Origin: Gammaproteobacteria bacterium
GTDB taxonomy: Bacteria; Pseudomonadota; Gammaproteobacteria; Thiohalomonadales; Thiohalomonadaceae
DNA length: 32,000 nucleotides
Assembly (NCBI GenBank): GCA_041690535.1
Contig: JAWLHA010000048.1
Coordinates: 1-32,000 of the forward strand
Reading direction: 5' to 3'
Shown: one piece after another, positions 2,175 through 19,961 of the stretch
Numbering within the stretch: position 1 is the stretch's first letter
Layout of the letters: the number at the start of each line of letters is the position of its first letter
The notes under the pieces: model-generated
Seen by the model: only the letters and a program-made list of their open reading frames with translations
Told to the model about the DNA's origin: nothing
Databases searched by the model: none
Position numbers and translations under genes: made by a program

Positions 2175-2963
2175 ATGCTGCCCAACTTCCTGGTGATCGG
2201 GGCGCCGCGCGCCGGGACGAGCTGGATCGCGAAAAACCTCAGTGCTCACCCCGAGGTCTTCATCCCCCGACGACAGGCGCTTCACTACTTCGACCGGTAC
2301 TATGACGGCAGCCTTCCCCGTTATGCCCGTAGGTTCAAGGGCTGGAGGGGAGAGAAAGCGGTCGGGGAGGCCACGCCGGCCTACCTCGGCTCGGTTCCGG
2401 TGCCGGGGCGGATCAGGGCGCACCTGCCGCACATCCGTCTGATTGCCTCTCTGCGCAATCCTGTGGAGCGCCTCCATTCGCGCTGCCTGAGCATGGGGGC
2501 CGCGCACCGCGACGAGGCCCGGCTTGGCTGTGAGGAGCGATTGCGCCAAAAGCCCCTCCTGCTGGAGGAGGGCTTCTATGATGAACAGCTGACGCGTTAC
2601 CTGGAGCTGTTTCCGCGGGAAAACCTATTGGTCCTGCTCTATGACGATCTGAAGCGGGAGCCGGCGCAGTTTCTGGAGAGGATCTACCGCTTCATCGGCG
2701 TGAACCCCTCCTTCCGCTCACCCTTTCTGAATGAAACCGTGTGCGCCACGGCCGACCGGCGGCTACGGTCGGGGCGCAATGTTCTGCGCAACCTCGCCAG
2801 GCGGTTGGGTGGGGCGAGTGGAAGGCCTCGCAAGTTGCCGGGACCGGGCAGCCCGCTGAGCGCCGTGACCCGCGCCTGGTTGGCAGAGGAGCTCTACCGG
2901 TCGCACAACCGGCGCCTGGAGGCGCTGATCGGGCGCGACCTCAGCGAATGGGATCGCCCCTGA
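2175..2963 (+). CDS. Sulfotransferase-domain protein
   Basis: 262-aa ORF. The N-terminal PAPS-binding loop is PNFLVIGAPRAGTSW, and there is a downstream RNPVER motif typical of the sulfotransferase family. Confidence 0.8.
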   Translation: MLPNFLVIGAPRAGTSWIAKNLSAHPEVFIPRRQALHYFDRYYDGSLPRYARRFKGWRGEKAVGEATPAYLGSVPVPGRIRAHLPHIRLIASLRNPVERLHSRCLSMGAAHRDEARLGCEERLRQKPLLLEEGFYDEQLTRYLELFPRENLLVLLYDDLKREPAQFLERIYRFIGVNPSFRSPFLNETVCATADRRLRSGRNVLRNLARRLGGASGRPRKLPGPGSPLSAVTRAWLAEELYRSHNRRLEALIGRDLSEWDRP

Positions 2964-2969
2964 ATCGGG

Positions 2970-3755
2970 TCACTTGCGGTAACGCTCCACCCACATGGCG
3001 GTGGCACCGGCCACCGCCGCCGGCATGACGAGGAAGTTCACCAGGGGGATCATGGTAGCCAGGAGCGTGGCACCGCCGAAACCGAGAGCGAGCAGGCGCT
3101 TCTCACCGAGTCGCCGGCGCTGTTCCTTCCCTTGCAGGCCGTGGTTGCCCATGGGGTAATCGGCATACTCCACCGCCATCATCCAGGCGCTGAACAGCGC
3201 CCACAATAGGGGAGCGAACAGATTGACGCCCGGGATGAGAAAGAGCAGGAGCAGGGGAATTGCTCTGACCACGAAATAGCCCAGCTTGCGAATCTCGTCC
3301 AGGACGACGGCCGGGGCCTGCTTGAGCGCATCCGCCAAGCCGGCCTCCGGGGGCCCACCGCCGGTCAGCTGACGCTCCACCGCCTCGGCCAATACCCCGT
3401 TGAAGGGTGCGCCGATCAGATTGGCCACGATGGAGAAGGTGAAGAACACCAGGATGGCCGCCGCCAGGCCGAACAGAAGCCACAAAAGCCAGCTGAGCCA
3501 GGCCAGCCACTCCGGCAGGTCCGGGATCAAGCGGTCGACCAACCCGCCGAACTGGCCCGCCAGTGCCCACAGCAACAGGGCGAACAGGCCCACATTGATG
3601 GCGAGGGGGACGAAGACGAAGCGACGCAGCCCCGGCCTGTTGAGCATTCCGAAGCCGCGCAGCAGGTAACCGGCCCCGGCAAGGGCAGAAACGGGGGCCG
3701 CAATACGAGATTCGAGGGGGGGCGGTGTCGCTCCGCCAGCGGGTACAGAATTCAA
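2970..3755 (-). CDS. cysZ: Sulfate transporter CysZ
   Basis: 261-aa multi-TM ORF with CysZ signature stretches: GLRRFVFVPLAINV, GAPFNGVLAEAVERQLTG, LWALFSAWMMAVEYADYP, AVAGATAMWVE. Confidence 0.9.
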   Translation of the reverse strand: MNSVPAGGATPPPLESRIAAPVSALAGAGYLLRGFGMLNRPGLRRFVFVPLAINVGLFALLLWALAGQFGGLVDRLIPDLPEWLAWLSWLLWLLFGLAAAILVFFTFSIVANLIGAPFNGVLAEAVERQLTGGGPPEAGLADALKQAPAVVLDEIRKLGYFVVRAIPLLLLFLIPGVNLFAPLLWALFSAWMMAVEYADYPMGNHGLQGKEQRRRLGEKRLLALGFGGATLLATMIPLVNFLVMPAAVAGATAMWVERYRK

Positions 3756-3839
3756 CGGTATCTCCTTGGGTTACTGCAGGTACGAGGGGGGACACTCAAC
3801 CATACTCGTGCGCGGAGACGCACACCACTCCTCGCATCC

Positions 3840-3984
3840 CAGGGTGAACGCATACTAACGTCACGGCCGTGCTGTGAGCGACGTAAGTCCTTGAAAGCAG
3901 GTACGCTGTAAATACATCCATGTACGCTCGACGACCTGCTTTCAAGGACTTACGTCGCTCTTGGGTGAGTATGCGTTCACCCTG
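3840..3984. mobile_element. 145-bp palindromic MITE-like element (family 2) with flanking direct repeat
   Basis: Terminal inverted repeats are cagggtgaacgcatact ... agtatgcgttcaccctg. The inner arms are gacgtaagtccttgaaagcaggt / acctgctttcaaggacttacgtc. It is flanked by cctcgcatcc at 3830-3839 and 3985-3994. Confidence 0.7.
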
Positions 3985-4028
3985 CCTCGCATCCTCGCAT
4001 CTCGCATCTGGCCCCTGATACCTCGAAT

Positions 4029-5288
4029 CTATTCTTGCGCAGCAAGAAGTGCCGTGCCGTAGGCCGCCTCGGCATGTTCGGCCCGCACCACCGGGACCCC
4101 CAGGGCCCTCTCCCGGATGCGACGCCAGGGTTCATTGCGGGCCCCGCCGCCGGCGCTCACCACCCGCGTGGGGTAGGGGGCACCCACGGCTTGGAGCCGT
4201 TCATAGGCTTGCCGCTCGATCCTGGCCATCCCCTCCAGCAGACCCTGAAAGAACAGCGCGTCGCTGGCCGGGCGGGGGGTGAGCCTGGGCGCCAGGGCCG
4301 GGTCGTTGACGGGGAAGCGTTCCCCGGGGGCCGACAGGGGGTAGTAATCGAGCCCCGTCGGGGTCTCAGGGTCCAGCTGGAGAGCCAGGGCGTCCATCTG
4401 CGCATCGGTGAAGAACTGTCGCAGGACCGCCCCGCCACTGTTGGAGCCCCCGCCCACCAGCCAGTGCCCTCCATAGGGCTGGCTGTAGATACCGAATTCG
4501 GGGGCGAACACCGGCCGCGTGGCGATCACCTTCGCCACCAGGGTCGAGCCGAGGGAGGTGACCGCCTCCCCCACCTGGCTGGCGCCGGTGGCGATGATGG
4601 CCGCGGTGCTGTCGGTGGTGCCGGCGCGCACCCGAACCCCTTCCAATCCCCACCGCCGGGCCAGCGCCTCGCGGAGCGGTGCCCACGGTGCCCCGGCGGG
4701 CACCACGTTGGGGAGAAGCTCCGGGGCGATGCCCAACTGCCGTAGCCAGGGGGGCCAGCGGTCCTGCTCCGGCTCATAACCGAGTTTCAGGGCGTTGTTG
4801 ACGTCGCAGAGGTCGTAGCGGCCGGTCAGCCGCCCGGCGATCCAGTCCGCCTGGGTATGGACGCGACCCACCGTGGCGCCCCCCTCCAGGAGCCAAAGCA
4901 GTTTGGCAAGGCCGGAGGCGGTGCCGTGGGCGGCGCTCTCCCGTGGGGCCACCGCCGCGATCCGCGCCGCCTGAACGACGGCGCGGCCATCGTTGTACAT
5001 CAGGGCGGGGGTGAGGGGGTGCCCCTCCGGGTCGGCCAGAAAGACGGTGCCGGAGGTGCCGTCCACCGCCAGGGCGCGTATGGAGCGGGGCGGGACGCGG
5101 GCGAGCAGCGCCTCCATGACCGCTTCGAACCCCTCCCACCACAGGCCGGGGGCCTGCTGCACCGCAACCCCCTCCCGCTCCGGCGGGGGCAGTGGCGCGG
5201 CCGCTTCCGCCCGCACCTCGCCCGCGGCATCGATCGCGCAGGCCCGGCACCCGGAGGTGCCGAGGTCGACGCCAATGAAGAGGTCCAT
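4029..5288 (-). CDS. FGGY-family carbohydrate kinase (xylulokinase/ribulokinase-like)
   Basis: 419-aa ORF. The N-terminal motif is GVDLGTSGCRA and the C-terminal part is the FGGY type (GGGSNSGG, GGGARN). Confidence 0.85.
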   Translation of the reverse strand: MDLFIGVDLGTSGCRACAIDAAGEVRAEAAAPLPPPEREGVAVQQAPGLWWEGFEAVMEALLARVPPRSIRALAVDGTSGTVFLADPEGHPLTPALMYNDGRAVVQAARIAAVAPRESAAHGTASGLAKLLWLLEGGATVGRVHTQADWIAGRLTGRYDLCDVNNALKLGYEPEQDRWPPWLRQLGIAPELLPNVVPAGAPWAPLREALARRWGLEGVRVRAGTTDSTAAIIATGASQVGEAVTSLGSTLVAKVIATRPVFAPEFGIYSQPYGGHWLVGGGSNSGGAVLRQFFTDAQMDALALQLDPETPTGLDYYPLSAPGERFPVNDPALAPRLTPRPASDALFFQGLLEGMARIERQAYERLQAVGAPYPTRVVSAGGGARNEPWRRIRERALGVPVVRAEHAEAAYGTALLAAQE

Positions 5289-13077: not shown

Positions 13078-13156
13078 TGTTGTCACGTCCCGAGATTGTG
13101 TTTTAATGTTGCCGAAGGGCTCTCTCGCCCCGTCTGCGGCCAAGCGTACAAAAGAA

Positions 13157-13365
13157 GTAACTACTCGCCCCCCGACTGCCTCCCGCTTATGCAAATAGTA
13201 AGATTAGGAAGCAGACTCACCGCACTCGATCCTCGCTCCTTGTCCTGTTCGTCATTCCCGCGAAGGCGGGAATCCATAAGGCACCCAGCCCAATACCCTT
13301 GGCCTCTGAAGTCCAGCACTGGATTCCCGCCTTCGCGGGAATGACGGACGGGTGTGAGTAGTTAC
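13157..13365 (+). mobile_element. 209-bp MITE (family 1, copy A) with 8-bp target site duplication
   Basis: Terminal inverted repeats are gtaactactcgc ... gtgagtagttac. Internal long inverted arms are gtcattcccgcgaaggcgggaatcc / ggattcccgccttcgcgggaatgac. The direct repeat caaaagaa flanks it at 13149-13156 and 13366-13373. Confidence 0.85.
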
Positions 13366-13598
13366 CAAAAGAACCTTAACTTCTCGGCGTTGGCTGCAGC
13401 AAATCCTTATGTCTTCTGCCATGGAATCTCACTGGATTTGATGTGCCACCCACTGTGGCCCGCGTGAACGAATTCCCTCTGGCGCGGTCAGACGCTCCTC
13501 TTCGCCCGCAGCAAGTCGCTGACCACAGAAAGGACAGTGGGTTACTCCCACAGCGGTAGACCAGATCGTGTCGCCCGCGTTTTCGAGGACAGGGATGT

Positions 13599-13677
13599 CC
13601 TGATGCCAAGCTCTGCCAAGGAAGGGCGCAACGCAACCTGACATCGGATGGCGCGCAGTCTTATGCGACGTTTAGTC
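13599..13677 (-). repeat. Degenerate attC-like repeat ending the cassette array
   Basis: The minus strand reads GACTAAACGTCGC...GTCAGGTTGCGTTGCGCCCTTCCTTGGCAGAGCTTGGC. This is homologous to the attC at 16638-16705, but the 3' GTTRRRY box is replaced by ATCAGG. It overlaps the rhodanese stop codon. Confidence 0.5.
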
Positions 13678-14064
13678 GCAGCCACAGCCTGCCGCCTTCC
13701 CACTAGACCCCGAGCCCTCCGTCTCATGTCCATCCCTTTTCCACCAATCCAGACCGCCGATGAGCTCTTTGACTCGAAAACCGATCCTTGTCATATTCAG
13801 GGCGCCCTTGGTTGAGGCGTTGCAACCGATTCCATCGCAGTAGGTGACAACCAGCGCCGTTCGATCAAGACTTGCAGTTGTTTCCTCGTTCATCGTTCTA
13901 TGGGGAATATTGATTGCCCCCGGGATGTGCTCTTTCTGATACGCCTCCGGTGAACGGGAATCGATGACGATTACGTTCTCCCCAGACTCCAAGGCAACCT
14001 TCAAGTCCCAAGAATCTGTCTCAAAGGCGAGCTTGTTTTCGTAGTGTCTCATTTGTTCGTCCAT
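13672..14064 (-). CDS. Rhodanese-like domain protein (cassette 5)
   Basis: The rhodanese fold motifs are VIDSRSPEAYQKEHIPGAINIP and the active-site loop YCDGIGCNAS. The C-terminus is Cys-rich (AAGCGCD). The ATG at 14064 is preferred over the track's GTG at 14079. Confidence 0.85.
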   Translation of the reverse strand: MDEQMRHYENKLAFETDSWDLKVALESGENVIVIDSRSPEAYQKEHIPGAINIPHRTMNEETTASLDRTALVVTYCDGIGCNASTKGALNMTRIGFRVKELIGGLDWWKRDGHETEGSGSSGKAAGCGCD

Positions 14065-14086
14065 GGATCTGTGTCTCACCTACTTT

Positions 14087-14145
14087 GCATAACATCGAAG
14101 CATTTATCTGCTGTGCGCAGCATGGCAGACAAATGCCTGTTGAAC
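14087..14145 (-). repeat. attC site (59 bp) of cassette 4
   Basis: The minus strand reads GTTCAAC-N45-GTTATGC. The inner stem is GCATTTGTCTGC / GCAGATAAATGC. R'' fits RYYYAAC and R' nearly fits GTTRRRY. The next cassette's ATG lies 23 nt downstream of R'. Confidence 0.65.
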
Positions 14146-14274
14146 CAAGCCGCTCATCCAGTTGGCACACTGTATCAATAGGGAAATGGTTTCTGAGAGG
14201 CAGGCAGTGGATGGCGTCTGGGGCAAAATGGACTCACGGCTAGCTCCTTGCGTGCTGCGTCACTGCCTTATTCT

Positions 14275-14748
14275 TTAATCGTTTGTGGATTTAGCACCAA
14301 CTTTCCATACCCCAATCACTGCCGCTGCTATTGTAAGCAAAACGTTTACTGCCCCAAAGATTGACTCCTGCATATACGCGGCCTTGTACTCTGGAAGGAG
14401 TTGGCCTTGTGCAAGAGAAAGAACAGCTATTTCTGTTGCCGAGGTTACGGCGGGCACAACGAAGAAATGTGCGTTAATAACGACCAGCATGATGAGCAGT
14501 AGCTTGAGCTGGAAAAATCTCTGTTTCAAACCATAACGTTTGTAGCCCATCCAAGCGCCGGTAATGGCAAGTAACCACATGCCGGAAAGTGTGAGGACGT
14601 TGGTGCCGGTGCTAATGATTTTTCGCCCAAAGGCGATGTTCTCCAGGCTGGCATCTTCGATAAGGGCAGAGATGACTATGAAAGTGAGAATGCTCCCCAG
14701 AAAAATTACTAGACCGCCAAGATGGACCAACTTTATTCCGCGATTCAT
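14275..14748 (-). CDS. Integral membrane protein, DUF2269-like (cassette 4)
   Basis: 157-aa ORF with four predicted TM helices. The RBS GGGGGAG precedes the ATG. The family assignment is by recollection of the DUF2269 pattern only. Confidence 0.7.
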   Translation of the reverse strand: MNRGIKLVHLGGLVIFLGSILTFIVISALIEDASLENIAFGRKIISTGTNVLTLSGMWLLAITGAWMGYKRYGLKQRFFQLKLLLIMLVVINAHFFVVPAVTSATEIAVLSLAQGQLLPEYKAAYMQESIFGAVNVLLTIAAAVIGVWKVGAKSTND

Positions 14749-14767
14749 TTCTCCCCCTTGTTGAGAC

Positions 14768-14830
14768 GACTAACGCCTATTACAGCCGAGGAAGGCCCCA
14801 TCGCGGCCTGACTTCGGCTGGAGCGGCTTC
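14768..14830 (-). repeat. attC-family repeat lacking its own R'' box (ORF-less cassette remnant)
   Basis: The minus strand reads GAAGCCGCTCCAGCCGAAGTCAGGCCGCGATGGGGCCTTCCTCGGCTGTAATAGGCGTTAGTC. It is homologous to 16638-16692 and ends in the R' box GTTAGTC. It begins directly after the R' of the preceding attC. Confidence 0.6.
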
Positions 14831-14889
14831 GTCCAACGCTAGCGCTCATCCGCGCGGCTTTTTGCGTCGGCTGTAGCGCCTTGTTGGGC
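14831..14889 (-). repeat. attC site (59 bp) of cassette 3
   Basis: The minus strand reads GCCCAAC-N45-GTTGGAC. R'' is the exact complement of the GTTGGGC that opens this cassette at 15358-15364. It has GCGCT/AGCGC L-box pairing and a CCG(A)CGC/GCGCGG stem with a bulged A. The ORF's TAG stop lies inside it. Confidence 0.75.
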
Positions 14890-15339
14890 GCCACTGCTGG
14901 AAAGAAGCCGCGGGCGGGACAGAACCGCTTCCAGCTCTTCTCTGGCACAGAACGGCCAAACGTCGAAATCTCCAGCTTCGAGGAACTGCTCCCATCGCTT
15001 TTTCTTCATCCGTTCCCACCAACCGAAGGTGAGCAGATTCACAGGCCAATTCACGATTTGGATGAACGAGTATTCAGGCCACAGATACTCTTGGTTTGAA
15101 TGCAAAAAGGCGACCCATCGTGCTATTTCCTTCCGCCCCGCGGAACCGCGACCCAGGTCACCCTCCACATAATGGGTCCGGAGGTCATCATAGAGTTGCC
15201 ACGCCATCTCCTTTACAGCAACGGCCCCCCTATCACGCCAATCTACATCCACTTCGTCCAGATCGTCGTTCGTGATGCGCCCCGAAACATACTGACGAAG
15301 CGCCTCCGCAAGGCAATTTCTTGACTCCCTATCAATCAC
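14839..15339 (-). CDS. Hypothetical protein (cassette 3)
   Basis: The ORF track starts at a TTG that lies inside the attC R' box. The GTG at 15339 is preceded by AAGGAGGAG at good spacing. No family was recognised. The protein is Trp-rich (WPEYSF, WPVNLLTFGWWERM). Confidence 0.7.
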   Translation of the reverse strand: MIDRESRNCLAEALRQYVSGRITNDDLDEVDVDWRDRGAVAVKEMAWQLYDDLRTHYVEGDLGRGSAGRKEIARWVAFLHSNQEYLWPEYSFIQIVNWPVNLLTFGWWERMKKKRWEQFLEAGDFDVWPFCAREELEAVLSRPRLLSSSGAQQGATADAKSRADER

Positions 15340-15357
15340 AGCACGCTCCTCCTTGCC

Positions 15358-15462
15358 GCCCAACGCGCGGCGCAGGCGACCGCAAAAGCGGCCCAGCCAC
15401 TGCTTGAAAGTACGCCAAAACCCGCGCCGCTTTTGCGGGTCGCCTGGAGCCGATGGTTAGCC
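15358..15462 (-). repeat. attC site (105 bp) of cassette 2
   Basis: The minus strand reads GGCTAAC-CATCG-GCTCCAG ... CTGCGCC-GCGC-GTTGGGC. A 20-bp stem CAGGCGACC(C)GCAAAAGCGGC / GCCGCTTTTGCGGTCGCCTG carries one extrahelical C. R' fits GTTRRRY exactly. Confidence 0.8.
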
Positions 15463-15465
15463 ACA

Positions 15466-15960
15466 CTACTCGGCGTAAAGGCGTTCATTGCGACCCTTAC
15501 TGGCTTTTAAGATGCGAACAAATGATGCTGATCGATCTGGTGAATGACAGACTTCGTGAAGGAGCGTGAGATCATGGTTCTTGTAATAGACCATTTCCCA
15601 GCCGCACCCCTGCTGATTGAAGCGCTGTTCCGCTTCATAATCCCAAGCATTGCCGCCAGTTGAAAATAACAGGAAGTCGTAGTTGCCGGCCGTGCCAAGC
15701 TCGTTTTCCGACTTTACTTTGGCATAATCGGTGTATGAGTAGGTTCTTCCAATATCGAAACCGACCATACCAGCCAACGCTCGATACCGTTCAATGTTTT
15801 TGTCGTCTGTCACTAGCGTGTAGACAGCGCCTGTGTACTTTGAATCAGCGCCAGCACTAGCCGTGCCCCCCGACGAGGCTGTAGTGGATTGTTGGTTTAC
15901 GCTATCGCCACAGCCCGACAGAGCCAACACTGCGATGCAAAACAGGATTGTGTTATTCAT
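15466..15960 (-). CDS. Lipoprotein, unknown function (cassette 2)
   Basis: 164-aa ORF. Its signal peptide ends in the lipobox LALSGC. The RBS GGAGAAAAG precedes the ATG. Confidence 0.8.
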   Translation of the reverse strand: MNNTILFCIAVLALSGCGDSVNQQSTTASSGGTASAGADSKYTGAVYTLVTDDKNIERYRALAGMVGFDIGRTYSYTDYAKVKSENELGTAGNYDFLLFSTGGNAWDYEAEQRFNQQGCGWEMVYYKNHDLTLLHEVCHSPDRSASFVRILKASKGRNERLYAE

Positions 15961-15979
15961 CTTTTCTCCAGAGCACCGG

Positions 15980-16640
15980 GTAGGTCAGGGCCTTACGGCC
16001 CGTTCCCCCCTAAGAACCGTACGTGCGAGTTTCCCCGCATACGGCTCAAGCCCTTCGTAAGCCGGGGCCAGCCGACTCAGCCGCTCACTTCCCGTATACT
16101 ACGCACAAACAAAGGCCTTCTGAAGCGGAGTCTTGGTTAGGGGCGGAAAAGGGGTCGGTGGCGGAAAAGGGGTCGGTGACAAACGGTAATCCAAACAATT
16201 CGCATTTGTCACCGACCCCTTAATTACCGATAAGACACCCCAACAGCATCTAGCCACCTCGCGGTGACCCACCTGGCTACGGCCTTCCCATGCCAGGAGC
16301 CCATCGGGGCTTCCCGAGTTCTACGACGTATCTCTTCCTGCATGCCACGGCCTGAGGACTCCGCCGGATCTCCACACCCTCGCCAAGGCGGGTGCTTCTG
16401 TGTTGCCTTCGGTGCACGTTAAAACCCTCGGCATCCGGATTGAGCTTTCCGAAGCTGTGCCAGCACTTCAGGGTGCGCGACCACCCCTACGGCCTACAGG
16501 ATTCTCTGTCCACGCTTAACCTGCTTTGTTCGTGATTCCACACTCCGCCACAGGTCCAAGACTCGATACGGGTGGTTGGCTAGTCCTTACCCGACGGGGA
16601 CTTTCACCCCGCAAGATACGCCGAGCTTTGCTCGGCGCGA
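15980..16640 (-). mobile_element. ORF-less group II intron (class C-like) inserted at the R' end of an attC
   Basis: On the minus strand there is a 5' hairpin CCGAGCAAAGCUCGG, the domain I motif GGGUGAAAGUCCC, a canonical 34-nt domain V, and a domain VI with a GUAA loop, a bulged A and a ...ACCUAC 3' end. No ORF of 60 aa or more lies in domain IV. The 5' end reads (A)UCGCG rather than GUGYG, so the boundaries are good to about 5 nt. Confidence 0.85.
16014..16047 (-). ncRNA. Group II intron domain V (catalytic hairpin)
   Basis: The minus strand reads GAGCCGUAUGCGGGGAAACUCGCACGUACGGUUC. It has the AGC catalytic triad, the 2-nt bulge and a GAAA tetraloop, and is 34 nt long, as in the consensus. 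Confidence 0.92.
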
Positions 16641-16705
16641 TAACGCCAAGCTCAGCCGTGGAAGGCCGCATCGCGGCCTGACGTCACTGGAGCGACGTGT
16701 TAAGC
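16638..16705 (-). repeat. attC site (68 bp) of cassette 1, carrying the intron at its R' box
   Basis: The minus strand reads GCTTAAC-ACGTC-GCTCCAG...GTCAGGCCGCGATGCGGCCTTCC...CTGAGCTTGGC-GTTATCG. R'' overlaps the TAA stop and is the exact complement of GTTAAGC at the cassette start (17436-17442). Confidence 0.8.
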
Positions 16706-17416
16706 GGTCGATTCACGTTCATACGCCTTTATTGCATCGATCACAAATTCCAACTTCGCCATAGGAATTCTGGCCCTTCGGGTACTATCATCAGAACCAT
16801 TTGCCGATAACTCCTGGGCACCAGGGAAATCTTTAATGGCATCTTCAGTTGACTTCGTTTTCGACCATATGGTTAGCGTGTACCGCCCACCGGTTCTAGT
16901 ACTTAATGCCAATCGGTAGTCCCCAATGCCGAACCTAACCGCACGTTCGTTCTTTGTGACATGGTGGTCTATGTTTAGCTCTTCTAGGTACGGCACAACT
17001 TCTGTATAGATTCGCTGAGAGCTCTTCGTGTTCTGTGCGTCTTCGGCCGCTTTCACATCTTGATCGTCTGCAACTTCTATCTCTTGTGCATCTGGATGAT
17101 AGACACGAACAAAATCAGAGACAGCGTCAACTAAGGTCTCGTTTCCATCCCAAAAGTACTCGCCATCGAGGCGCGAGTTATCCAGGATCGTGTGAAGCAT
17201 CTGCTCTACCGCCGTCGCATCAAGGCCAGTCCAGGCCCTGATGATCGATATCTTGACTGGGCTCACGGTGCCCAACAATTCACGCTCCCTTCGCTCCGGA
17301 TGGTCAGTAGTAATCCCGATCTTCTTTATCGGCGGAAAGGAAGCGTCCCCGTCGAACTTCTGCAACTTCGCAGAGAAAAGCGGTGCAGCAATGTACAAAG
17401 TGTTCTGTGCGTTCAT
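16700..17416 (-). CDS. T5orf172/MUG113 (GIY-YIG superfamily)-like N-terminal domain protein with an unknown C-terminal domain (cassette 1)
   Basis: 238-aa ORF. The stretch IKKIGITTDHPERRERELLG...AVEQMLHTILDNSRLDGEYFW matches the T5orf172 pattern (KIGxT..RR..EL...E..LH......GEWF). The C-terminal ~110 aa was not recognised. Confidence 0.7.
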   Translation of the reverse strand: MNAQNTLYIAAPLFSAKLQKFDGDASFPPIKKIGITTDHPERRERELLGTVSPVKISIIRAWTGLDATAVEQMLHTILDNSRLDGEYFWDGNETLVDAVSDFVRVYHPDAQEIEVADDQDVKAAEDAQNTKSSQRIYTEVVPYLEELNIDHHVTKNERAVRFGIGDYRLALSTRTGGRYTLTIWSKTKSTEDAIKDFPGAQELSANGSDDSTRRARIPMAKLEFVIDAIKAYERESTA

Positions 17417-17435
17417 ATTCTCCTCTCACCAGAGC

Positions 17436-17550
17436 GCTTAACAGTTGATTAGACCGACCATCCATTAACCGGAACATTCCGGTATCGGGCCATAACTTCC
17501 GCCAGACTGCCACAAATTTCCATTATTGGACATGCTGAATACTTCCATTA
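17436..17550 (-). other. Array-proximal junction, possibly an attI-like site
   Basis: The minus strand ends CTAATCAAC-T-GTTAAGC, a simple-site-like L/R box pair. It is preceded by three direct TAATGGA repeats (17461-17467, 17519-17525, 17544-17550) and the 16-bp palindrome ACCGGAACATTCCGGT (17468-17483). No integrase gene is adjacent. Confidence 0.3.
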
Positions 17551-19418: not shown

Positions 19419-19453
19419 CCTTATGAACCATAGTGCATGTTATCTCGCATTTC

Positions 19454-19687
19454 GTAACTACTCACCCGCATCCGTCATTCCCGCGAAGCCTGCCCCCGAG
19501 AGCTTTAATCGGGGGGCGGGAATCCAGTGCTGGACTTCAGAGGGCCAAGCGTATTGGGCTGGGCGCCTTATGGATTCCCGCCTTCGCGGGAATGACGAAC
19601 AGTACAAGTAGCGAGGATTGAGTGCGGTGAACCTGCGACCGCATCCTAATTCCATAAGCGGGAAGCAGTCGGAGAGCGAGTAGTTAC
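19454..19687 (-). mobile_element. 234-bp MITE (family 1, copy B, inverted relative to copy A) with 8-bp target site duplication
   Basis: Its reverse complement aligns with 13157-13365 over the full length. It has the same gtaactactc termini. The direct repeat cgcatttc flanks it at 19446-19453 and 19688-19695. It carries a 26-bp internal insertion (19489-19514) that is absent from copy A. Confidence 0.85.
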
Positions 19688-19961
19688 CGCATTTCTTACC
19701 TGGGCCCCGAGACCTCGCGGGTTACCGGCGAGGGACCGCCGCTTTCACATCACTGCGATGTGCAGGCGGTTTCGCCGCGCGCAATCTCACCAACAGGGGC
19801 AAGTGTTTTTCTCTACGAAGTTGACGGTGGGCCTTCTGTTACACCGAGGAGGCGGACGGGCGTCGGGCGCCCCTGCCGCTTATGGGCGGCATTGCCTGGG
19901 AGAGGCGTGGTCAGGTCCCGCCGCTCAGGCGGCAGCGCCGCCCGGCGTCTTCCGACTCTTC

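Follow-up and report, generated by a model that had tools for sequence, protein, structure and literature searches.

A group II intron without an open reading frame at an attC site is probably the fused remnant of two introns

When a group II intron that encodes no protein lies exactly at the end of an attC site, is it a single intron that has lost its open reading frame (ORF), or does it have a more complicated origin? The question is raised by a locus in a gammaproteobacterium of the Thiohalomonadaceae, for which we analysed a window of 32,000 nucleotides (nt), namely positions 1 to 32,000 of the forward strand of contig JAWLHA010000048.1 (assembly GCA_041690535.1). The minus strand of this window carries at 16640..15975 an ORF-less group II intron of 666 nt, running from 5' UCGCG to CCCGGU 3'. 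It comes immediately after GGCGTTA, the bases that close an attC on its 3' side, and immediately before the second cassette of an array. An earlier note, made from the letters of the sequence alone, had viewed the element as a non-autonomous or degenerate derivative of the IIC-attC introns. Our comparisons suggest instead that it is probably a fusion of two different group II introns, and that a deletion relic is more likely than a working mobile element.

The group II assignment itself was borne out by an Rfam scan (cmscan at the gathering thresholds of 49 bits for RF02005 and 40 bits for RF00029). The full RF02005 model (group-II-D1D4-6) aligns at 16604..16348 (minus strand) with 108.3 bits (E 4.9e-30), and the full domain V/VI model RF00029 at 16049..15975 (minus strand) with 67.7 bits (E 1.8e-11). 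Folding recovers domain V at 16047..16014 as a canonical 34-nt helix with an AGC triad, a 2-nt bulge and a GAAA loop, and domain VI at 16010..15978 with a GUAA loop and an unpaired A at 15981, which is position -7 from the 3' end of the intron. The 34-nt domain V, the GUAA loop and the bulged A described in the note are thus all seen in the fold, and the 5' hairpin CCGAGCAAAGCUCGG and the domain I motif GGGUGAAAGUCCC that it listed are likewise present. The 666 nt as a whole fold to -296 kcal/mol (z -3.7 relative to shuffles). The termini, UCGCG...GU, depart from the consensus GUGYG...AY. None of the five small ORFs within the intron has a Pfam match, and tblastn with five intron reverse transcriptases finds no remnant of such a gene; the note was right that there is no reverse transcriptase or maturase ORF and that the intron, encoding no protein, is non-autonomous. 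The element has no ORF but a complete set of ribozyme domains, as is characteristic of ORF-less introns mobilised in trans. Its limits (15975..16640, minus strand) are set by the Rfam matches, 92 related 5' copies, IIB-type 3' copies and the branch A, and it divides into three segments: nt 1-414 (16227..16640, minus strand) hold domains I-III and the first bases of domain IV, nt 415-575 (16066..16226, minus strand) occupy the domain IV position, and nt 576-666 (15975..16065, minus strand) hold the end of domain IV with domains V and VI.

Both junctions can be placed to the nucleotide. The 5' junction reads GGCGTTA|UCGCG, with intron nt 1 at 16640. The 92 related copies come from 89 loci that a 25-nt pattern of the 5' hairpin picked out in a genome scan, and from a Thiodictyon plasmid match; CGTTA forms the last exon bases in 63 of them and UCGCG the intron start in 78. 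A reading of UCGCG as a decayed 5' end was rejected, this start being the family norm and occurring also in copies with intact proteins. The hairpin loop UAACG (16421..16417, minus strand), identified as exon-binding site 1 (EBS1) from the hairpin of the RF02005 alignment, is conserved across the RF02005 family and can pair with the last five exon bases, CGUUA; the locus L067 covaries, with the loop CAACG and the exon CGUUG. Together, exon, start and EBS1 pairing uphold the earlier placement of the intron start directly after GGCGTTA, and the GTTA is assigned to the exon because it pairs with the TAAC of the other end of the attC. The intron lies at the R' end of the attC, as had been noticed from the sequence: GTTA (16644..16641) precedes it and GC (15974..15973) completes the R' box after it, in an attC homologous to two others in the array. 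At the other end the intron finishes with ...ACCUACCCGGU at 15975, 14 nt before the ATG of a lipoprotein gene, and not at the ACCUAC that the note had put 20 nt before this ATG. The RF00029 alignment stops at 15975, and IIB-type copies are alike up to CCCGGU and then diverge. Excision in silico leaves GTTA|GCTCTGGAGAAAAGATG; a homologous cassette in L217, a locus from another array, has a comparable start. The 3' exon opens with G, which is also what most family sites show.

The 5' two-thirds of the element have close relatives. Nucleotides 1-412 are 95% identical to L079, from a metagenome-assembled genome (MAG) of Thiohalomonas denitrificans, which runs on into a reverse transcriptase gene before its contig stops short of the 3' end of the intron. 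With L011 and L039 the element shares 92% identity over roughly its first 355 nt, after which similarity ends. The RF02005 score of the window intron, 108 bits, falls within the range of ORF-containing copies (100-112 bits). About eight copies of the family are full length, near 2005 nt; in two of them, L012 and L038, the protein is intact and, as judged by Pfam, carries RVT_1 and GIIM domains but no endonuclease. These family proteins share about 43% identity with those encoded by RF02005 introns of Bacillaceae plasmids, and the plasmid matches listed for the family protein, all at about 43% identity or less, include no recognisable class 1 integron intron. RF02005 scores above those of the family are reached by a Klebsiella pneumoniae plasmid intron beside umuD and by introns on Halomonas and Peribacillus plasmids. 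By sequence, then, nt 1-414 are part of a large RF02005 family whose members lie mostly at attC hairpins after CGTTA. We infer that this family is IIC-type from the plasmid introns that score on RF02005 and from the fact that attC introns of Chromatiaceae and Desulfobacterota have been placed in IIC-attC (PMC3001079), rather than from a class-specific test.

The 3' part appears to be of another type. The native 3' end of the family reads GAACCGGAUGCGGGAAAACYGCACGUCCGGGUC...CCUAC(S)(S)CGGA, and the complete close relatives L039 and L011 end in a family-type domain V, GAACCGGAUGCGGGAAAAC..., and the terminus ...CCUACCGCGA; such ends were found by BLAST with one family 3' end, domain V regular expressions having matched none in the family loci. 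On a profile built from 23 family 3' ends the 3' end of the window intron scores 13.1 bits, as against 62.7-88.5 for members and 5.4-17.6 for IIB-type ends. The RF00029 scores divide in the same way, with 32.8-45.1 bits for RF02005 introns, 58.3-69.3 for RF02012/RF01999 introns and 67.7 for the window intron. None of the 89 loci of the family has a domain V of the window type. When metagenomes were scanned with the domain V pattern of the window intron, at least 120 loci came back, and among 14 that were examined an RF02012 5' half lies upstream of the domain V match in nine and an RF02005 one in none. The terminus CUACCCGGU is common to the window intron and to introns that begin UUGCGAC, and the J4/5 sequence of the window intron, GGCUUGAGCC, is that of RF02012 introns. 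The Rfam scan finds no remnant of RF02012 in the window. Domains V-VI thus seem to lie outside the RF02005 family and to be of the RF02012 IIB type, of the UUGCG...CCCGGU kind, and with ends that look like RF02012/RF01999 on RF00029 and reach 13 bits on the family profile, the idea of a single degenerate intron loses its footing. What stands of the proposed IIC-attC derivative is the first 414 nt, in an RF02005 family at attC hairpins; domains V-VI, the strand and the site do not fit it.

The IIB-type lineage also uses the target found here. Its RF02012-type members (L099:1546, L112 in reverse at about 186, L189:3267, L192:2000, L193, L205 and L211) start with UUGCGAC directly after CGTTA or CGTTG and end in CUACCCGGU or CUACCCGGC. 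The junction CGTTA|UUGCGAC is found in L112, L099, L189, L192 and L205, and a GU terminus is also seen in copies of the L099 and L113 types. L112 is itself ORF-less, at about 840 nt. The presence of this lineage at CGTTA agrees with the published intron UHB.I2, an IIB1/CL1 intron with the termini 5'-UUGCG..GU-3' that lies just after an attC and sense to the cassettes (PMC7923331).

Between the two parts lie about 160 nt that resemble neither. BLAST of nt 415-575 against 211 loci and against the plasmid collection finds nothing, the only Rfam matches are chance ones to hairpins, and neither Pfam on the ORFs nor tblastn shows a protein remnant. These nucleotides contain a hairpin with a perfect 19-bp stem (16221..16167, sense strand; -36 kcal/mol, z -6.1), which with a U-tract (UUUU) and two tandem copies of the 18-nt sequence ACCGACCCCUUUUCCGCC makes up 16147..16221 (minus strand), as read from the fold and a motif count. 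The motif GGGGTCGGTGAC occurs three times in 16147..16221, compared with 0.33 expected by chance in the whole window.

How might two such parts have been joined? We infer a deletion and the following order of events. The first 414 nt would have been supplied by an RF02005 IIC-type intron, of the family that inserts by reverse splicing behind CGTTA, where attC hairpins have their 3' foot, and the last 90 nt or so by an RF02012 IIB-type intron of the UUGCG...CCCGGU kind, which is also found after CGTTA. Both would have inserted at or near the junction of the first attC with cassette 2, either in tandem at GTTA^G or at two different array junctions. A deletion with one end in domain IV of the upstream intron and the other in domain IV of the downstream intron would then have removed both reverse transcriptase genes, domains V-VI of the first intron and domains I-III of the second, leaving both outer junctions exact. 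Such a deletion is the simplest account because the outer junctions are natural and both parental similarities end in the domain IV region. The 92% relative L011, in which introns nest and abut, provides a precedent for crowding.

Several points weigh against a fusion. Neither parent is seen in the 32 kb of the host genome that were available, nor was an intermediate with two full introns in tandem seen at this site. The IIB-type set was retrieved with the domain V pattern of the window itself, which makes the likeness partly circular; the comparisons by family profile and by Rfam do not depend on this pattern. The assignments of RF02005 to IIC and RF02012 to IIB stand on indirect grounds, namely the company that each model keeps, the description of UHB.I2 and general knowledge, rather than on a class-specific test, and the fusion does not account for the 160-nt middle segment. 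Moreover, the contig of the closest relative, L079, stops before the 3' end of the intron, so that there may be a sub-lineage with an IIB-like domain V of its own. This last point leads to the reading of the element as a single, non-chimeric derivative from an unsampled IIC-type sub-lineage with a canonical (AGC, 34-nt) domain V, its ORF lost by internal deletion. All six domain positions are present between exact junctions, domain VI is laid out like that of the family (G-run, GUAA loop, CCUAC), and ORF-less copies are common in the RF02005 family, all of which such a derivative would explain. We nevertheless regard it as unlikely, since identity falls from 92-95% to background exactly at domain IV, the complete 92% relatives L011 and L039 have family-type 3' ends, the 3' end of the window intron falls so far below the 63-88 bits of members on the family profile, its domain V was met in none of the 89 loci, and its terminus and J4/5 are those of RF02012 introns.

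Granted a fusion, the hybrid could still be alive. Both halves score on Rfam as well as intact introns do, which implies that the deletion is recent or that the hybrid is maintained, perhaps by selection on a working form. The EBS1 pairing with intron-binding site 1 (IBS1) is intact, the 3' exon starts with G, and the whole element folds better than shuffled controls. One might therefore suppose that this IIC/IIB hybrid is functional, able to fold and to splice, and carried as a unit by a reverse transcriptase of the family that is made elsewhere in the genome, and the start of a public contig at nt 314 of the intron does suggest further copies of the 5' part there. A second copy of the 666-nt form is lacking, however, from the 89 genome loci and the at least 120 metagenome loci; domain IVa, which is kept in 13 of 13 ORF-less family copies, is missing; and the last base is U where the family has GA/AG, so that a pairing with the domain II-III junction may be broken. 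A mobile hybrid of this kind is, in our judgement, somewhat more doubtful than the single derivative, and the chance that an IIC scaffold with an IIB catalytic core is a working ribozyme, spliced accurately from the cassette transcript and perhaps mobilised in trans, is similarly slim. Least probable of all is that the relic has been retained as a cis-regulatory spacer, whether because its hairpin terminates or attenuates read-through from cassette 1 or because the leader modulates translation of the lipoprotein. The perfect 19-bp stem is followed by UUUU on the sense strand, the intron ends just upstream of the GGAG, and published IIC-attC introns lower read-through and supply promoters (PMC3001079). 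Yet a simple scan calls neither a sigma-70-type promoter nor a terminator on either strand; the loop of this hairpin is too long for its rules. The middle segment is unique and hence has no support from conservation. The scan likewise gives no encouragement to the suggestion that the element supplies a promoter for the downstream cassette.

The element is sense and probably co-transcribed with the cassettes. If it is the fusion that we favour, splicing would need an IIC-type scaffold to work with an IIB-type catalytic hairpin; unspliced, it would form a 666-nt structured leader with a strong hairpin and U-tract that ends 14 nt upstream of the lipoprotein start codon. The protein of such an intron normally binds to a stem-loop, domain IVa. 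The window copy lacks domain IVa, its homology with the family stopping at nt 414, and with neither a protein nor this stem-loop, the element could not move by itself and would be a poor substrate for a maturase acting in trans. The dependence on such a maturase that the note had put forward is thus less likely than supposed, the more so as the form was found only once.

Comparison with known systems places the element among several of them. Group IIC-attC introns include S.ma.I2, E.c.I7, Kl.pn.I1 and environmental members such as those of Allochromatium vinosum and Desulfurivibrio alkaliphilus, and attC introns of Chromatiaceae and Desulfobacterota have been placed in this group (PMC3001079). 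Like these introns, the window intron has IIC-type domains I-III (RF02005), is inserted at the foot of an attC hairpin within the GTTRRRY box with a short IBS1 pairing, is found in a cassette array that lacks an integrase, and has relatives that encode reverse transcriptases without an endonuclease domain. Described members are found in the bottom strand, with TTGT/T in R'' as their site, and run antisense to the cassettes (PMC3001079, PMC7923331), whereas the window intron is sense, at R' after CGTTA/G; it is also ORF-less, starts with UCGCG and has domains V-VI that are not IIC-type. Thus, three of the IIC-attC features that we checked are lacking: the strand, the exact site and a IIC ribozyme throughout. 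With UHB.I2, as known from its published description, the element shares the sense orientation, the position just downstream of an attC and a 3' end, CCCGGU, that fits ..GU-3'. UHB.I2 comes from soda-lake metagenomes, and the IIB1 (CL1) fragments H.ha.F1 and H.ha.F2 lie by attC sites in Halorhodospira halochloris, where 5'-truncated copies with domains V-VI and part of the protein ORF occur in an integrase-less array (PMC7923331). Unlike these, only the last 90 nt or so of the window element are IIB-type, its 5' part is of another class, and it has no protein remnant.

ORF-less introns that rely on the protein of a related intron in trans are known from a Thermosynechococcus elongatus family (PMC2882425; reviewed in PMC4424553). 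The window element resembles them in having no ORF, all ribozyme domains and ORF-containing kin in related organisms. The T. elongatus introns, however, are deletion derivatives of one intron and present in several copies, whereas the window element would be a two-class hybrid, is single-copy in the data searched and has no protein-binding start of domain IV; two of the features checked for a trans-mobilised intron, multiple copies and a retained domain IVa, are therefore absent. Nested or tandem group II introns reduced by deletion are represented by twintrons and the Methanosarcina arrays (PMC4424553), with which the locus has in common repeated homing to one short target, nesting or abutting (both shown by L011) and losses by deletion. 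Unlike twintrons, it forms one apparently complete six-domain unit with exact outer junctions, in which two introns are no longer recognisable as such. Overall, the element derives from, and would work like, the known attC-associated group II introns.

The surroundings are those of a small cassette array. The attC of cassette 1 (16641..16705, minus strand) was read from the sequence, from homologous attCs of the array and from its hairpin fold; the upstream gene has its stop codon within the R'' box, GCTTAAC (16705..16699), and the sites at 16641-16685, 14771-14815 and 13601-13645 are mutually homologous (family D1), the last of them degenerate. The gene of cassette 1 (16700..17416, minus strand) encodes 238 amino acids (aa) with a T5orf172/MUG113 domain (PF13455, 1.4e-7; PF10544, 3.1e-7). 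Cassette 2 (15466..15974, minus strand, from the ORF list) begins with the 3' exon GCUCUGGAGAAAAG (15974..15961), which includes a GGAG ribosome-binding site, and its lipoprotein-like gene of 164 aa (15960..15466, minus strand) is supported by the ORF list and by a gene call on the public contig L001. A 62%-identical homologue of this lipoprotein, in L217, starts with GTTGCCCCTTGGAGAACCAATG directly after its attC. No true empty site was found: an identical lipoprotein occurs only on the window sequence, and L217 offers a comparable cassette start. The array (13600-17450) holds about five cassettes, all on the minus strand, which encode the T5orf172/MUG113-domain protein, the lipoprotein-like protein, a 174-aa protein of unknown function, a DUF2269 membrane protein and a rhodanese, and it is wedged between ctaA and an epimerase gene with ligA. 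There is no integrase within the window, so that the array is a cluster of attC sites without one. The sense orientation of the intron is judged against two cassette genes with Pfam support that lie on its strand, the T5orf172/MUG113 gene immediately upstream and the rhodanese gene. The point of integrase crossover, G^TT, precedes the intron by 3 nt, and the intron is therefore formally part of cassette 2 and would travel with it. A repeat of about 230 bp, with the internal palindrome TTCCCGCGAAGGCGGGAA, is present at 13138-13369 and 19450-19706; the two copies are mutually inverted, 79-100% complementary, and bracket the cassette array together with ctaA. In the public assembly GCA_041687195.1, contig L001 starts within the intron (window position about 16327, nt 314) and is then identical to the window, a break which suggests that the first 310 nt or so are repeated elsewhere in that genome.

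The wider RF02005 family has features of its own. ORF-less introns have been described as rare in bacteria. Thirteen ORF-less copies were found in this family (L009, L010, L042, L044, L045, L047, L054, L058, L067, L070, L085, L089 and L090), of about 710-835 nt (around 760), in MAGs of Gammaproteobacteria and Desulfobacterota. All 13 keep the start of domain IV (IVa), the start codon of the protein and about 130 nt of the ORF, followed by a short hairpin and then native domains V-VI, and a domain I tree intersperses them among full-length copies, placing L045, for example, with L038. Family introns occur on either strand of one Chromatiaceae attC type, with 14 copies on one strand (including L009, L012, L034, L035, L059, L069, L085 and L087) and seven on its reverse complement (including L002, L015, L016, L027, L062 and L081), and the bottom-strand rule for attC-homing introns thus fails for this family. 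Strand use was judged from gene orientation, Pfam-supported genes and the direction of matches to a single attC type; the bases left unpaired when the upstream hairpins are folded at minimum energy gave a mixed and unreliable strand signal and were not used. Locus L011 (1151-5479) is a twintron in which an RF01999-type intron (about 2510-4381) lies within the YADD codons of the reverse transcriptase gene of the outer intron; directly behind the outer intron, at about 5030, another RF02005 intron begins. In L002, the Thiodictyon plasmid pTs485, two decayed family copies (2934-3350 and 4003-5100) lie 1 kb apart and antisense to their annotated neighbours, and one of them keeps only the maturase part, annotated as a 150-aa maturase-domain protein.

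Integron-associated introns have been described as IIC, bottom-strand and antisense (PMC3001079). The picture here is messier: the CGTTA motif is followed by introns of two unrelated ribozyme classes, in some cases at attC, both attC strands are used, and introns pile up and are trimmed by deletion to forms that look complete. For annotation, this means that a group II match with a missing ORF does not identify a single non-autonomous intron, and that the halves of such elements should be classified separately. The by-products of the family survey, namely the abundant ORF-less copies, the use of both strands and the two classes at one motif, may interest specialists more than the element itself. 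In the unlikely event that the hybrid splices, it would be a natural experiment in module exchange between intron classes, and a working hybrid would make domains V-VI interchangeable modules in vivo. For integron biology, the locus presents a 666-nt structured insert in sense orientation that would move with cassette 2 and could affect the expression of everything downstream.

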